From Candidatus Dojkabacteria bacterium HGW-Dojkabacteria-1 (GTDB lineage Bacteria > Patescibacteriota > Dojkabacteria > SC72), in NCBI GenBank assembly GCA_002840365.1, contig PHAO01000001.1, positions 239,242 to 303,241 on the forward strand: a stretch of DNA of 64,000 nucleotides, in the 5' to 3' direction. The position numbers were made by a program, and so were the translations under genes. Below the pieces are notes generated by a model that was not told where the DNA came from, ran no database searches, and saw only the letters and a program-made list of their open reading frames with translations. Positions 18,603-51,903 of the stretch are shown piece after piece (position 1 is the stretch's first letter; each line of letters starts with the position of its first letter).

Positions 18603-19625
18603 TTGTATATTTTTAATATGGAAAATACAGATTACAAAGTACAAGTTTTTACAGGGATTAGGCCCTCTGGTGGTTTAACTATTGCTAATGCAATTGGTGC
18701 TGTTAATCCCATTGTAAAGATACAAGAGGAAGAAGAGGTTGGTAATACAATGGTCTTTGTTGCAGATTTGCATGCCTTAACTGATGCTGAACCAAAAGAA
18801 ACTCAAAGTAACATTGTTGATGTCGTAAAGGATTACATCTCTTTGGGTTTGGATGTAAACAGAAACAGAATCTTTGTGCAGTCTTTTCTTACTCAAGAGA
18901 TAGCTGAATTGAACTTGTATCTTTCAAGACTTGTCACTATTGCAGAATTAATGAGAGTACCTACATTAAAAGAAAAGATTAAGAAGGGACAAAACGAGAG
19001 TAATGCTAGTGCATTACTTGCAATGTACCCTATTATGATGGCTTCAGATATTCTTTTACAAAAATCTGAATATGTTCCTGTTGGTGAGGATCAGGTTGCC
19101 CATATTGAAATTACTAGAGTATTGGCTCAGAAGTTTAACAAAAAATATGGAAATGTATTCCCTCTTCCTAAGGTATTGTCTTTGGGTAAGCCTGTAAGGA
19201 TTAAGTCTTTGACTGGTAATGGAAAGATGAGTAAAACAGATCCTAGTGGAGCAATTCTACTAGATGATCCGATTGAGATATCTTTAAACAAGGTAAAGAG
19301 AGCTCAAAGTGCTTTTGCCAAAGAGAAGTCAGAGAGTTTAGATTCTTTGGTATTGATAGGGGAGTTTGTTGGAAACGAAAAAGAGAGAGAAGAAATACTA
19401 TCCATTATGAAAAGACACTATGATGGTGAGAATGTAATGGGTGAGCTAAAGGGTGTAATTTCTACTGGCTTAGAAAGATTTTTAAAGGAGTTTCAAGAGA
19501 AGAAAGCATCTTTGAAAGAGGAGGATATTCTCAAGAAGGTAAAAATAGATGGTGATATAGCAAGAGAGAATGCTAAAGAGACATTAAGAGATGTTAGGAA
19601 AGCAATGGGATTGGAATATTTTTAA
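18603..19625 (+). CDS. trpS: class I aminoacyl-tRNA synthetase, most likely tryptophanyl-tRNA synthetase
   Basis: KMSKT (KMSKS) motif, degenerate HIGH region (SGGLTIANAIG), 340-aa size typical of TrpRS; TyrRS not excluded. Confidence 0.6.
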   Translation: MYIFNMENTDYKVQVFTGIRPSGGLTIANAIGAVNPIVKIQEEEEVGNTMVFVADLHALTDAEPKETQSNIVDVVKDYISLGLDVNRNRIFVQSFLTQEIAELNLYLSRLVTIAELMRVPTLKEKIKKGQNESNASALLAMYPIMMASDILLQKSEYVPVGEDQVAHIEITRVLAQKFNKKYGNVFPLPKVLSLGKPVRIKSLTGNGKMSKTDPSGAILLDDPIEISLNKVKRAQSAFAKEKSESLDSLVLIGEFVGNEKEREEILSIMKRHYDGENVMGELKGVISTGLERFLKEFQEKKASLKEEDILKKVKIDGDIARENAKETLRDVRKAMGLEYF

Positions 19626-21640
19626 TTATCTCTTATTCTGACAATATATCTTTGTCCATGACCAAACACTTCATCCATATCACCTTCTTTTACAACGAAG
19701 ATTTTTATTCTACCATCATTGTGTCTGTTTGAATCTGCTACAAGCAGTACTGTTTCTCCTCTTTCATCTTTGATTTTATCCAGTATTAATCCGATATGTC
19801 CTGTAGGTTTTCCAGTACCTGCCATTGGGGCACCATCTACTCTTACAAAAAGGTCCCCGGGGTTATAATCATCAATACTAAGTTCTCCTCCTGCAATGGC
19901 TTGGGCTCCATAGTTTGTTGCCATAGACCTTTTCTCTTTATAGGTGTAATTTCTGAGTCCTTCGGGTATTAATTCTCTAGCACTATCTGCTGGAGCACTT
20001 CCAACGTATGGTATTGGTATTTCTGGATACAGCCAGGAGGCCATCATCACAAAGCCTACACATTGTAATGGTTGGTTTTTTACTTGTGCAGTTGTTGATA
20101 ACATAAGTATTCTATCAACCCTTTCTTTGTTTTCTTCTGTAACATACTTTTTATACCAATCAGAGTTTCTTAGGTATTCATTTAATCTTTGTGGATTCTC
20201 ATAGGTATATGTATTTACAGACTCTTGTAATTCCAATACGTTTTTCAAGGTTGAGTTTTGCTCTATTCTTTCTGAAAAAAGTCGTAAATCTTCTACGTTG
20301 TATATTAAATCAGCAGAGTTTTGCATTTGTATATCAATGGGATGATTTAATACATTTATGTCCATTTGATTGTCATTTAGTCTCTCTTGGTGTTGTGAAC
20401 TTCTGAAATATCTGTAGTTTTCAAGGTCTATTGCTAATTTTTCTGTTTGATCTTTTGGAGGAAAGTCTTCAAATGAAAGCGAAACTACAAGAAAGACATC
20501 TGAAAGACCTCCTACACCATCTTTCTCGGTTGCACTATATGGTAAATCAGAGGGAGTTGTAAAAGTTTTAATATGAAGATATTTGTCTTCACCTTGAACC
20601 CATCGAAAGTCAAATGTTTCTCTATCATTGTAATCTACTGTTGCATCTACAAGATATTCAGAAGGACTAAAAGGTCCTTGTGCATACCTTACTGGATGAG
20701 CCCATTGTTCCAAAATTTTGTATTGATTGGTATTTTGTAGATGAACGAGTGCAGAGGTTCCAGTTGCCATTGCGCAGACCCCCCCTCCTTTTACCTTGGA
20801 TTTGGAACTTGTTAGTCCGTATTCGTACTCATTTTTTTTGTTTAAATCTTTTAAACCAATCATATTTAAATATGATTGTTCTGTATTTTTTCTTAGAGGC
20901 CCATTTACATCTTGGTACTCAGACATATTTCTGAGAGCAATTAAGGTATTTGTAACTTTATTAGGATATATGAAATCCTCTGTTACTACATATGATACTA
21001 TTTTACTATTTGTTTCCTTCTCTTTGGTAAACTCTATCTCCGTCCCATTTTCGTCTGTGGCACCAAGGAGCACAGCTGAGACAAAGTTTGCACCAAATGT
21101 ATTCGCGATTAGACCTAATTTAATTTTTTCTCCATTGGGTCCGGTAATATTTCTTATTTCCGCTATTTCAAAACTGTGTCCGTAAGGAACTATTATTTCT
21201 TTAACCTCTCTTCTTTCATCTACAAAATTATCTTTTCTAAGAGGAATCATGTACATCGAAGTTTCATTTAATATTTCTATACCATATCCTGGTTCTTTTG
21301 CTTCAATTTTTTCTATTTTATATTCACTCCAGTCAGTAATATTTAAAATCTCATGATTAAAGGGCTTACTTTCTTGTGATATTGTTTGTTCAGTAGGTGT
21401 TTCAACAAGGGTTTGTATTGAAGGTGTTAGCGTAGGTGTCGCAAAGCTAGGCGCTTTTGCAGTATTTGTATATTCGAACCCCATGGGGGTAGCAAGGGTT
21501 TCAGTAACTGGTGGTTCTGTAACAGCTTCTTCTGCTTTTGCTTGTGCGGATTGGCCTATATTTGTACATCCTGTAACAGCAGAGGCGAGAAGAGATGTTA
21601 CAGTAAGAAGTTCTACTGCTTTGTTGTGTTTTCCTTCCAT
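19622..21640 (-). CDS. lipoprotein with C-terminal CHAP-domain (Cys/His amidase-peptidase)
   Basis: Lipobox AVTGC after a signal peptide; C-terminal QCVGFV ... PGDLFV ... GHIGLILD matches the CHAP Cys/His pattern; 1-nt gap from the giant surface-protein gene. Confidence 0.6.
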   Translation of the reverse strand: MEGKHNKAVELLTVTSLLASAVTGCTNIGQSAQAKAEEAVTEPPVTETLATPMGFEYTNTAKAPSFATPTLTPSIQTLVETPTEQTISQESKPFNHEILNITDWSEYKIEKIEAKEPGYGIEILNETSMYMIPLRKDNFVDERREVKEIIVPYGHSFEIAEIRNITGPNGEKIKLGLIANTFGANFVSAVLLGATDENGTEIEFTKEKETNSKIVSYVVTEDFIYPNKVTNTLIALRNMSEYQDVNGPLRKNTEQSYLNMIGLKDLNKKNEYEYGLTSSKSKVKGGGVCAMATGTSALVHLQNTNQYKILEQWAHPVRYAQGPFSPSEYLVDATVDYNDRETFDFRWVQGEDKYLHIKTFTTPSDLPYSATEKDGVGGLSDVFLVVSLSFEDFPPKDQTEKLAIDLENYRYFRSSQHQERLNDNQMDINVLNHPIDIQMQNSADLIYNVEDLRLFSERIEQNSTLKNVLELQESVNTYTYENPQRLNEYLRNSDWYKKYVTEENKERVDRILMLSTTAQVKNQPLQCVGFVMMASWLYPEIPIPYVGSAPADSARELIPEGLRNYTYKEKRSMATNYGAQAIAGGELSIDDYNPGDLFVRVDGAPMAGTGKPTGHIGLILDKIKDERGETVLLVADSNRHNDGRIKIFVVKEGDMDEVFGHGQRYIVRIRDN

Positions 21641-28352: not shown

Positions 28353-29450
28353 ATGAAAAAAGTTCTTATAGTAATTGGTAGTGCTGGAGGTGGTCATATT
28401 GCATGTGCAAGAGCTATTGAAACAGCACTTTTAAAGTATAAGAAAGAACTGGATATTGAGATTGTAGACCTATTTCAACTCTCTGTATTTACAAAAGGTT
28501 ATGATTTTTACTATTACCTTGTTACTAGATTTAGATTTGTTGAAAAGATATACAATTTTGGATATTGGTTGATAAATAGGAGTAAGGTATTTAGTGAAGT
28601 AGTATTTTTTTTCTCAGTTCTTCCACTATATTCTCCTACTAGAAGATATTTAGAAGAGAAAAAACCTGATTTAGTTATCTGTAACAACGGTCCTACTGTA
28701 AGAGCAGTAGGTATGTGTAAGAAAGAGCTGAATTTTAAATATGTAATTACTGTACCAGACTTAATATCTGTTAATCGTTGGTGGGCTGATGGTAGAGCAG
28801 ATATTATCTTTTCACCAACTAAAGAAGCAGATGAAATATTAAGAAATTACTGTAAAGAATGTAATGTAGTCTCACCTTACTATCCACTGCGTGATGTACC
28901 TATGTATTCGAAAGAGGGGATATTAAGAATTAGAAAAGATATATTTAATGAATACGGATTTGATGTAAACAAGAAAACTATACTTATTACCGGTTGTGGT
29001 ATGGGTACTGGTAATATTGTTCAGGGTTTAATGAGATATATTCGTAAGCATGATTACCAATTTATCATTATGGTTGGAAGAGACAAAGTCTTAGGTAGAG
29101 CTCTTAAATTGATGTTTAAGAAAAATACAAGAGTAGCAATTCAAGGATATACAACAGAAATATTAGATCTTTTTGCAATATCTGATGTGATTATTGCAAA
29201 ACCGGGACCTGCAACTGTACTAGAGATTGAAAAGGTAGGTAAGAAAGCTATCTTTACATATCCAGTTGGGTACCAGGAATGGGGGAACGTTGATTACCTA
29301 CTTACGAATCCTAATTTTAGATATGTTGGTAAAAGGTTTGATTTAATACCAGAGCATATTGAAGAGTTACTTACTATTAAAACAAAAAAGCACCAGAGTC
29401 TAATTAAAGACTCCAGTGCTATTGTAGAATATCTGTTTAAACAAAAGTAA
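28353..29450 (+). CDS. GT28-family glycosyltransferase (MurG / MGDG-synthase / UgtP-like)
   Basis: N-terminal GSAGGGHIACARA (G-rich GGxGGH loop) and C-terminal IIAKPGPATVLEIEKVGKKAIF resembling MurG-type motifs. Confidence 0.6.
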   Translation: MKKVLIVIGSAGGGHIACARAIETALLKYKKELDIEIVDLFQLSVFTKGYDFYYYLVTRFRFVEKIYNFGYWLINRSKVFSEVVFFFSVLPLYSPTRRYLEEKKPDLVICNNGPTVRAVGMCKKELNFKYVITVPDLISVNRWWADGRADIIFSPTKEADEILRNYCKECNVVSPYYPLRDVPMYSKEGILRIRKDIFNEYGFDVNKKTILITGCGMGTGNIVQGLMRYIRKHDYQFIIMVGRDKVLGRALKLMFKKNTRVAIQGYTTEILDLFAISDVIIAKPGPATVLEIEKVGKKAIFTYPVGYQEWGNVDYLLTNPNFRYVGKRFDLIPEHIEELLTIKTKKHQSLIKDSSAIVEYLFKQK

Positions 29451-48343: not shown

Positions 48344-49231
48344 ATGGATAATAATATACTCTCCTTAATAAGTAATTTCGCAGAAATTACCCTCTTTAAT
48401 GTAGATGAACAAGGAAGAATAAAGAAAGTAATACTAAATACCAAAGAAAATTTCAAAACAACAGGAGTTAAATATGTATTTGAGTTCTTTTCTAAAGAAG
48501 ATGCAGCTAGATTAATGGATATGCTAAGTGTAGGAATTGATCAAGAAAGAGAATACTTTCTCTTCAAAAGACAATTCAATATCCCTGACTATGCAGATGT
48601 AAGTGTAAGAACTATAAATGGAGAGATATATGTAGGATTCCAATTCTACAAAACCTCAAGAGAAAGAGAACTAACATTGGAAAGAAGAATCAATGAATTA
48701 AATACTGCTGCTAATACAGATCCAATGACTAAACTCCTTAACAGATATGGATATTGGGAAAGGGTAAAAGCGATACTTAACTGTGGAGACTCTGAAAGAA
48801 GGGTAGGTATATTGGTAGTAGATATAGACAAATTAAAGACCATTAACGATACAATGGGACACAAGACAGGAGACAAGGCAATTACACAGATAGGGGATTT
48901 AATATCATCCACTATACGTAATCGGGACATAGCGGTTAGATATGGAGGTGATGAGTTTGTAATAGTGGTTGAGGAGCTATCCGGAAGTAAGAGTACTGCA
49001 CATGGATTAGGTAGTAGACTTGTAAGAACTATTAATCAAAACAAAAAGAATTTCCTAACAACAACATCCATAGGGGTACATGTTACAAGAGTTGGAGATT
49101 TTGAAAAATATCTTAACAATGAAAACAAACTAAGAAAGGAATGGGACAAAGCAGTAGAGATTGCAGACAAAATGGCATACAAAGCTAAGGAAAATGGCCG
49201 TAACCAAGTACAATTCTCTAAGGAAGCTTAA
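48344..49231 (+). CDS. GGDEF-domain diguanylate cyclase with an uncharacterised N-terminal sensor domain
   Basis: RYGGDEFVIVV GGDEF motif preceded by the RxxD-like I-site region. Confidence 0.8.
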   Translation: MDNNILSLISNFAEITLFNVDEQGRIKKVILNTKENFKTTGVKYVFEFFSKEDAARLMDMLSVGIDQEREYFLFKRQFNIPDYADVSVRTINGEIYVGFQFYKTSRERELTLERRINELNTAANTDPMTKLLNRYGYWERVKAILNCGDSERRVGILVVDIDKLKTINDTMGHKTGDKAITQIGDLISSTIRNRDIAVRYGGDEFVIVVEELSGSKSTAHGLGSRLVRTINQNKKNFLTTTSIGVHVTRVGDFEKYLNNENKLRKEWDKAVEIADKMAYKAKENGRNQVQFSKEA

Positions 49232-51823: not shown

Positions 51824-51896
51824 GCGCTGGTGGGGAAGTTGGTATCCCGTTGGATTTTAAATCCAAAGCTCGAAGGTTCAAGTCCTTCCCAGCGCG
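51824..51896 (+). tRNA. canonical 73-nt tRNA cloverleaf with anticodon TTA (reads UAA/UAG); suppressor-type tRNA with Gln-like features (discriminator G73, UUUUAAA loop)
   Basis: Acceptor GCGCTGG/CCAGCGC, D-arm GGGA-AGTTGGTA-TCCC, anticodon stem TTGGA/TCCAA with loop TTTTAAA, variable AGCTC, T-arm GAAGG-TTCAAGT-CCTTC; all arm lengths canonical. Confidence 0.55.
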
Positions 51897-51903
51897 CCTT
51901 AAG

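Follow-up and report, generated by a model that had tools for sequence, protein, structure and literature searches.

Introduction

VanW domains, described so far mainly in Firmicutes and Actinobacteria and usually together with PG4 domains, were recognised in 2024 as the second family of peptidoglycan L,D-transpeptidases, when their activity was shown to need a conserved Cys (PMC11348318). A Cys-His-Asp triad has been proposed for them, within a fold that has no relatives in the Protein Data Bank (PDB) (PMC11348318; reviewed in PMC12729407). Peptidoglycan hydrolases of the CHAP type (for example, LysK, LysGH15, Ly7917, PlyGRCS, LysIME-EF1, PcsB and PlyC) share Q-C, G-H and acidic-x-Asn motifs and co-occur with SH3b-type domains, and both class A penicillin-binding proteins (PBPs) and SH3b-NlpC/P60 proteins (for example, BCE_2878 of B. 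cereus) carry several peptidoglycan-active or -binding modules on one extracytoplasmic polypeptide. Here we analyse a 672-amino-acid (aa) protein encoded in a 64,000-nucleotide (nt) stretch of the genome of Candidatus Dojkabacteria bacterium HGW-Dojkabacteria-1 (contig PHAO01000001.1, positions 239,242 to 303,241; hereafter the window), in which all three folded domains are of known kinds (VanW, SH3b-like and CHAP-type) and their combination is unannotated. The literature searched yielded no CHAP-type hydrolase fused to a VanW transpeptidase, and every source that names a member of the family calls it a 'hypothetical protein'. The Dojkabacteria belong to the candidate phyla radiation (CPR), many members of which are episymbionts.

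Compared with described VanW L,D-transpeptidases (C. difficile Ldt4 and Ldt5, and VanW-B), the 672-aa protein has a homologous catalytic domain, with a GGG[VM]C motif and the Cys, His and Asp in register, and is likewise predicted to be membrane-tethered, extracytoplasmic and paired with a putative peptidoglycan-binding domain. It differs from them in having neither PG4 nor G5 domains, in the placement of an SH3b-like domain before the VanW domain, in the second thiol enzyme domain (CHAP-like) that follows, in scoring under the Pfam cutoff, in the replacement of the His by Glu in some orthologues, and in its host, a CPR bacterium rather than a Firmicute or Actinobacterium. With the CHAP hydrolases it shares the three motifs and the SH3b-type partner, but it is too divergent for the Pfam model, has a Cys-to-His spacing of about 88 residues (63 in LysK) because of an insertion, and carries a family-specific helical region ahead of the CHAP-like domain. 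Rather than a phage lysin it is a chromosomally encoded protein with a predicted lipid anchor and a fused synthase-type domain. Relative to the class A PBPs and the SH3b-NlpC/P60 autolysins, what differs is the fusion of VanW and CHAP-type domains, of which the literature searched gave no example.

Results

By sequence comparison, residues 226–420 form a VanW L,D-transpeptidase-type domain with a candidate Cys-His-Asp triad. Profile–profile alignment (hhalign) of the family with E. faecium VanW-B (a reference taken from the vanB plasmid, with a Pfam VanW score of its own of 128 bits) gave a probability of 94.5% (E = 7.8 × 10−8, 99 columns) and paired Cys289 (in GGGVC) with the Cys in GGGMCQ, His315 with the SGHVV His, and Asp332 (in VDATV) with the VDATI Asp. 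All 28 aligned orthologues have Cys289 and Asp332, with the GGGVC motif kept. Pfam VanW (PF04294) is matched by 22–23 of these orthologues (best E = 3.7 × 10−8), the precomputed annotation of the protein collection assigns it to 16 of the 60 homologues that we recovered, and one relative (P0105) scores 27.7 bits with it. A tblastn search of plasmids with the VanW region returned no match, and a word-indexed protein search with a profile of the same region returned only six extra, short relatives and no canonical VanW. In the five orthologues that have Glu in place of the VanW His (P0005, P0009, P0010, P0012 and P0021), the VDATV motif reads VDSSV; P0021 is the copy in a genome (L004/L022) that has a giant gene upstream, as described below for the window.

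The C-terminal domain (residues 516–672) is probably a remote member of the CHAP type, divergent enough to fall short of membership at the Pfam threshold. An initial annotation had named a CHAP domain here from the motifs QCVGFV (residues 526–531) and GHIGLI (residues 614–619). Both motifs and a Cys/His CHAP-type fold are present, whereas a Pfam CHAP match at threshold is not, and the assignment rests on fold and profile–profile evidence. Structurally, residues 516–672 have the fold of solved CHAP domains, with the NlpC/P60 enzymes MepS, CwlO and LytE scoring lower. When residues 421–672 were left out, the structural matches of 116–143 residues disappeared, and Ly7917 and PlyGRCS matched through their SH3b parts only (about 80 residues). 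For the profile comparison we aligned nine phage CHAP domains, namely LysK (its sequence confirmed as 100% identical to that of phage 812) and eight others at 29–65% identity, in which the motifs QC, GH and [ED]-Q-N are invariant. Against this alignment the C-terminal block of the family reached a hhalign probability of 75.6% (pairwise E = 2.4 × 10−5, with a confident core of 25 columns), compared with 0.1–0.2% for the other three regions of the 672-aa protein used as controls. The extended alignment sets QC, GH and D636-S-N638 on the reference QC, GH and E/D-Q-N, with high confidence around the His motif only.

A loss of the Cys or His in orthologues was looked for and not found: all 28 sequences have C527 and H615, and likewise Q526, G614 and G617, and D636, N638 and R639 occur in each of the 27 that extend that far. 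The Pfam CHAP model itself gave four sub-threshold matches among the 28 orthologues (best E = 0.025) and never reached its threshold; a distant relative (P0090) scored 17.3 bits against a cutoff of 26, and a scan with NCBIfam returned nothing relevant.

The long N-terminal region reported initially does include a linker, but it also holds two domains that had gone unnoticed, the VanW domain and, ahead of it, an SH3b-like all-beta domain (residues 93–225) that is putatively peptidoglycan-binding. In fold, residues 93–225 match SH3b domains over the greater part of the reference, and they gave no match to SH3_3, SH3_5 or related Pfam models at E ≤ 10. An AlphaFold2 model built from the 28-sequence alignment (pLDDT 84, pTM 0.80) is confident over residues 90–672 and disordered over residues 1–89 (pLDDT <50), and a sub-model of residues 90–420 reached a pLDDT of 94.6 and a pTM of 0.92. 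The VanW part of this sub-model had no relative in a structure search of the PDB. The domain assignments themselves we regard as very likely to be right. That the gene is a chance open reading frame (ORF) was ruled out by the 60 homologues and the confident structure models.

Domain architectures across the wider family were examined with a phmmer search of residues 516–672 against 1.84 billion cluster representatives, which found only 84 proteins at E ≤ 10−3, onto which four family hidden Markov models (HMMs) were mapped. Two of the 84 (P0083, a fasciclin-repeat protein according to Pfam, and P0088) matched none of the four domain profiles and were set aside as false positives caused by repeats, leaving 82 true representatives. 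VanW plus CHAP-like is the dominant architecture (48 of the 82, with the SH3b-like domain detected in 26 of them), followed by helical plus CHAP-like (17), CHAP-like only (14, several of them fragments) and SH3b-like plus helical plus CHAP-like without VanW (3; P0077, P0079 and P0080). The helical region immediately precedes the CHAP-like domain in 66 of the 82, VanW-less proteins included; in the sequences compared, the two travel as one module. The CHAP-like module is also joined to an Amidase_2 domain in P0090 and to a polysaccharide deacetylase domain in P0089; the enzyme domains that can be identified beside it are all peptidoglycan-directed. Short relatives of about 390–410 aa, P0052 and P0055 among them, consist of SH3b-like and VanW domains only.

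The CHAP-like module was also found inside a 2884-aa protein (P0137). Another large protein, P0101 (L044, 4101..24668), is a secreted giant of 6855 aa that ends in a CHAP-like domain and comes from a metagenome-assembled genome (MAG) of 49.5% GC. The helical-region profile did not match P0101, in which similar sequence can be seen by eye before the CHAP-like domain; its gene lies just downstream of pilN, pilO and a gene for an fn3-like protein, with class A PBP and GH18 genes nearby.

Homologues of the full protein are few and concentrated in one lineage. A search of 5.8 billion proteins returned 60, most of them 620–695 aa long, and the named sources are Candidatus Dojkabacteria (WS6, CPR). 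In contigs sampled at one genome per species we located 25 loci, most of them labelled Dojkabacteria or generic Patescibacteria, with a GC content of 30–37%, and one in a Woesebacteria MAG. MAGs labelled Anaerolineaceae (L023, L024, L027 and L031–L033) also carry homologues, on contigs of 42–48% GC, including a full-length 663-aa copy (L023, 35% identity) that keeps all catalytic residues; horizontal transfer, mis-binning and a broader distribution of the family are all conceivable reasons for the Anaerolineaceae-labelled homologues.

At its N-terminus the protein has a short charged segment, a hydrophobic segment and a lipobox-compatible sequence, AVTG followed by C25 (MEGKHNKAVELLTVTSLLASAVTG directly before C25), which bears out the lipobox reported initially and marks residues 1–25 as a signal peptide or membrane anchor, predicted to be of the lipoprotein type. 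The lipobox Cys is retained in 24 of the 28 aligned homologues, in two of which the motif comes only after an N-terminal extension of about 220 aa; the four that lack the Cys suggest a plain membrane anchor in some members. Neither Lgt nor LspA was found among those ORFs of the 64-kb window that were scanned (part of them). The disordered linker that follows had been described as a GC-rich Thr/Pro linker. It is indeed Thr/Pro-rich, and rich in Ala and Glu as well (13 Thr, 8 Ala, 8 Glu and 7 Pro among the 65 residues 28–92), but its codons, at 43.6% GC compared with 35.7% for the whole gene and 34% for the window, are GC-rich only relative to an AT-rich genome.

The 672-aa ORF starts directly downstream, on the same strand, of a gene for a 2203-aa protein, after a gap of 1 nt, exactly as first reported: the junction reads ACA TAA A ATG, from the stop codon of the 2203-aa gene to the ORF start. 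This spacing makes co-transcription of the two genes likely in this genome. The two frames differ, and a read-through fusion was rejected because reading through the TAA would not join them. At its 3' end the 672-aa gene shares 4 nt with the convergent TrpRS gene. The 2203-aa protein is a typical large CPR surface protein, for which 'adhesin' is an inferred role.

The gene pair had been taken initially for a functional pairing of an adhesin with a hydrolase; this does not hold up across related genomes, the pair being found in one subclade only. Four distinct genomes have a same-strand giant gene (>2200 aa) immediately upstream: that of the window (with its near-identical contigs L001–L003), L012 (52% identity, gap 31 nt), L014 (50%, gap 69 nt) and L022 (45–46%, gap 39 nt; the same contig as L004). 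A giant gene is probably upstream in L011 and L013 too, where the contigs end inside a large upstream ORF. Only the window and its close relatives have the 1-nt gap; wherever else the pair is kept, 31–70 nt separate the two genes. The L004 contig preserves a syntenic block of GT28-like, giant, 672-aa homologue, TrpRS, UDG, NDK and radical SAM genes. A divergently oriented gene for a GT28/MGDG-synthase-like glycosyltransferase, found next to the giant gene in the window as well as in L004/L022, may be the giant gene's true conserved partner.

At 12 or more other loci the giant upstream gene is absent, and the neighbours vary by lineage. Upstream of the homologue are enolase in L017 (50% identity), a HAD hydrolase in L018 (46%, with TrpRS still downstream), GH3 directly upstream in L009 (48%, with a GlmS-like gene nearby) and an F420-ligase-like gene in L006, L019, L020 and L021 (in L006 with MurB three genes off). 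In L008, MreB-MreC-PBP2 and a FemAB-like gene lie within a few genes of the homologue, and the neighbours are DeoC in L023, a Big_5 plus C39-like protein in L025 and the CCA-adding enzyme in L026. In the Woesebacteria MAG (L034, 7022..10822; 27% identity) polysaccharide deacetylase and Amidase_2 genes flank the homologue on one strand, and this trio looks like a small peptidoglycan-modification cluster. Where informative, the neighbours are peptidoglycan genes (L008, L009, L006 and L034). Because the adjacency to the giant gene is confined to one subclade, it reflects local synteny rather than a conserved two-gene system.

Elsewhere in the window there is a gene for a well-formed tRNA whose anticodon, UUA, would read UAA stop codons ('tRNA-Stop' according to ARAGORN; Rfam tRNA score 68.8 bits) and which has a cloverleaf with a 7-nt loop, UUUUAAA. 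It sits between tsaD and enolase, a housekeeping context with no obvious prophage, and no relatives came up in scans of the collection that used its anticodon arm and T-arm. Among 55 ORFs of the window, TAA is the commonest stop codon (33), followed by TAG (20) and TGA (2). The other annotated features are listed in Table 1.

Table 1 Positions of the 672-aa gene, its domains and catalytic residues, its neighbours and other features in the window
Feature	Coordinates	Strand	Residues or remarks
Whole coding sequence, 672 aa	19622..21640	minus	ATG start, TAA stop
Signal peptide or membrane anchor, predicted lipoprotein type	21566..21640	minus	Residues 1–25; from hydropathy and sequence
Disordered linker	21365..21565	minus	Residues 26–92; Thr/Ala/Glu/Pro-rich
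SH3b-like all-beta domain, putatively peptidoglycan-binding	20966..21364	minus	Residues 93–225
VanW-type domain	20381..20965	minus	Residues 226–420
Candidate VanW triad, Cys289	20774..20776	minus	
Candidate VanW triad, His315	20696..20698	minus	
Candidate VanW triad, Asp332	20645..20647	minus	
Helical region	20096..20380	minus	Residues 421–515; model helices 437–515
Divergent CHAP-like cysteine peptidase/amidase domain	19625..20095	minus	Residues 516–672
CHAP-like key residue Cys527	20060..20062	minus	
CHAP-like key residue His615	19796..19798	minus	
CHAP-like key residue Asp636	19733..19735	minus	
CHAP-like key residue Asn638	19727..19729	minus	
Surface protein, 2203 aa	21642..28253	minus	DUF2341, three Ig_Rha78A_N, fn3 repeats, CarboxypepD_reg; hydrophobic segment at each end
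TrpRS	18603..19625	plus	
GT28/MGDG-synthase-like glycosyltransferase	28353..29450	plus	
M23 peptidase, 472 aa	2184..3602	minus	
Surface protein, 687 aa	10782..12845	plus	Big_1 and CarboxypepD_reg; syntenic with L004
Envelope protein, 857 aa	39348..41921	plus	GLUG, M26-N-like and CHB_HEX_C domains
Type ISP restriction-modification enzyme, 1017 aa	44041..47094	minus	N6_Mtase and Type_ISP_C
GGDEF diguanylate cyclase	48344..49231	plus	
tRNA with anticodon UUA	51824..51898	plus	

Discussion

We consider it reasonably probable that the 672-aa protein is a membrane-tethered bifunctional enzyme that remodels the cell wall of the Dojkabacteria cell that produces it. Recognition of the VanW and SH3b-like domains moves the reading from a host-wall hydrolase towards a peptidoglycan cross-linker and cleaver, most simply one that acts on the cell's own wall, and the retention of the lipobox Cys in 24 of the 28 homologues argues for retention of the protein at the producer's own envelope.

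The analysis shows the domain folds, their homologies and the conservation of the catalytic residues. What we infer for the chemistry of each domain, for the own wall as substrate and for the coupling of the two activities is as follows. A lipid or signal anchor would keep the protein on the outer side of the membrane, from which a flexible, disordered linker of about 65 residues would let the folded part reach into the wall, where the SH3b-like domain may dock on peptidoglycan. Cys289 would attack a tetrapeptide stem, freeing D-Ala4 and forming a thioacyl enzyme; a neighbouring stem as acceptor would yield a 3-3 cross-link, and water as acceptor would amount to L,D-carboxypeptidase activity. 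The helical plus CHAP-like module (with Cys527, His615, Asp636 and Asn638) would cut a peptidoglycan amide bond, either MurNAc-L-Ala or a peptide bond of the stem or cross-bridge. Bond making and bond breaking would thereby be joined on one polypeptide, with which the cell would enlarge or repair its own wall.

Several observations weigh against this interpretation. The 672-aa protein scores only 21.4 bits with Pfam VanW (E = 1.9 × 10−4), below the gathering (GA) cutoff of 27, and position 315, while His in 23 of the 28 orthologues (including the 672-aa protein), is Glu in the other five, so some family members may not be transpeptidases. Transpeptidase activity was detected in only three out of seven VanW proteins of foreign origin that were assayed (PMC11348318). 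For the C-terminal domain, Pfam CHAP (PF05257) has no match in the 672-aa protein at E ≤ 10, a Foldseek search of the PDB with the whole model had no significant match (best E of 0.19) and reached CHAP or papain-like structures at a probability of 0.44 at most, and phmmer and HMM-profile searches of PDB sequences returned NlpC/P60 at E of about 1 and an irrelevant match at E = 2.4. In addition, phage endolysins and bacteriocins directed at foreign walls have the SH3b plus CHAP layout, and an episymbiotic life is common among CPR bacteria, so that a foreign wall is a possible target.

The last point leads to the alternative closest to the initial annotation, in which the protein is a host-directed wall hydrolase, with the adhesin holding a partner cell whose peptidoglycan is opened by the tethered SH3b-CHAP enzyme. 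The endolysin- or bacteriocin-like layout and the membership of Dojkabacteria in the CPR would fit such a role, as would the 1-nt gap with the co-transcription it implies here, the conservation of the pair and of a wider synteny block down to 45–52% identity (L012, L014 and L022) and the occurrence of the CHAP-like module at the C-terminus of the 6855-aa P0101, beside pilN/pilO, and within the 2884-aa P0137. However, the adjacency is missing at the 12 or more loci described above, among them L017, L018 and L009 at a comparable 46–50% identity (L018 retains the downstream TrpRS gene with the giant gene gone), and elsewhere the paired genes are 31–70 nt apart. A lipid anchor would, moreover, retain the enzyme on its producer, a cross-linking VanW domain has no obvious role against a foreign wall, and deacetylase and Amidase_2 domain partners fit peptidoglycan housekeeping; we therefore regard a host-directed hydrolase as unlikely, though by no means negligible. 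The giant neighbour also enters a different proposal, that the VanW domain is a protein-to-peptidoglycan ligase that covalently anchors surface proteins (for example, the giant itself), with the CHAP-like domain releasing or trimming them. YkuD-type L,D-transpeptidases link lipoproteins and outer-membrane proteins to peptidoglycan (reviewed in PMC12729407), VanW enzymes have the same thioacyl chemistry and a giant surface-protein gene adjoins in one subclade, but protein attachment is not known for any VanW enzyme, the adjacency is not conserved and no recognisable acceptor motif came to light in the giant protein, at which no search for one was aimed; we regard this proposal as very improbable.

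It is also conceivable, but in our estimation unlikely, that only one of the two thiol domains works, the VanW-like domain having drifted to a carboxypeptidase-only or purely peptidoglycan-binding role in what would be a tethered CHAP autolysin for cell separation. The exchange of His for Glu in five orthologues and the sub-cutoff Pfam score are compatible with such a drift, as are the existence of VanW-less SH3b-like/helical/CHAP-like proteins (P0077, P0079 and P0080), the lack of a transpeptidase signal from four of the seven foreign VanW proteins and the carboxypeptidase activity that Cys-to-Ala VanW mutants still had (PMC11348318). Set against it are the invariance of Cys289 and Asp332 in all 28 orthologues with GGGVC kept, the full Cys-His-Asp set that the 672-aa protein itself aligns to VanW-B, and the relatives of the same clade that have VanW without CHAP (P0052 and P0055), which suggest that the VanW domain is functional on its own. 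An own-wall enzyme with two active domains thus remains the reading that we prefer. Quite unlikely, in our view, is a bolder version of it, in which the single lipid-tethered VanW plus CHAP-type polypeptide is a self-contained 'cut-and-relink' machine whose module, on giant proteins, is usable on a partner's wall as well. Were this version true, a genome-reduced CPR bacterium could open and re-cross-link its peptidoglycan without a multi-protein elongasome, and the module grafted onto giants such as P0101 could serve on the wall of a partner cell during episymbiosis.

Together, these results describe a compact, unannotated family, mainly of CPR Dojkabacteria, that unites VanW, SH3b-like and divergent CHAP-type thiol peptidase domains, and they correct the over-reading that the tight spacing to the giant gene had made tempting. 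If both catalytic domains are active, the protein would naturally bring together, on one chain, the making of cross-links and the breaking of bonds, would be a useful model for the coupling of wall synthesis and hydrolysis, and would offer a handle on the cell-wall biology of uncultivated, genome-reduced bacteria.

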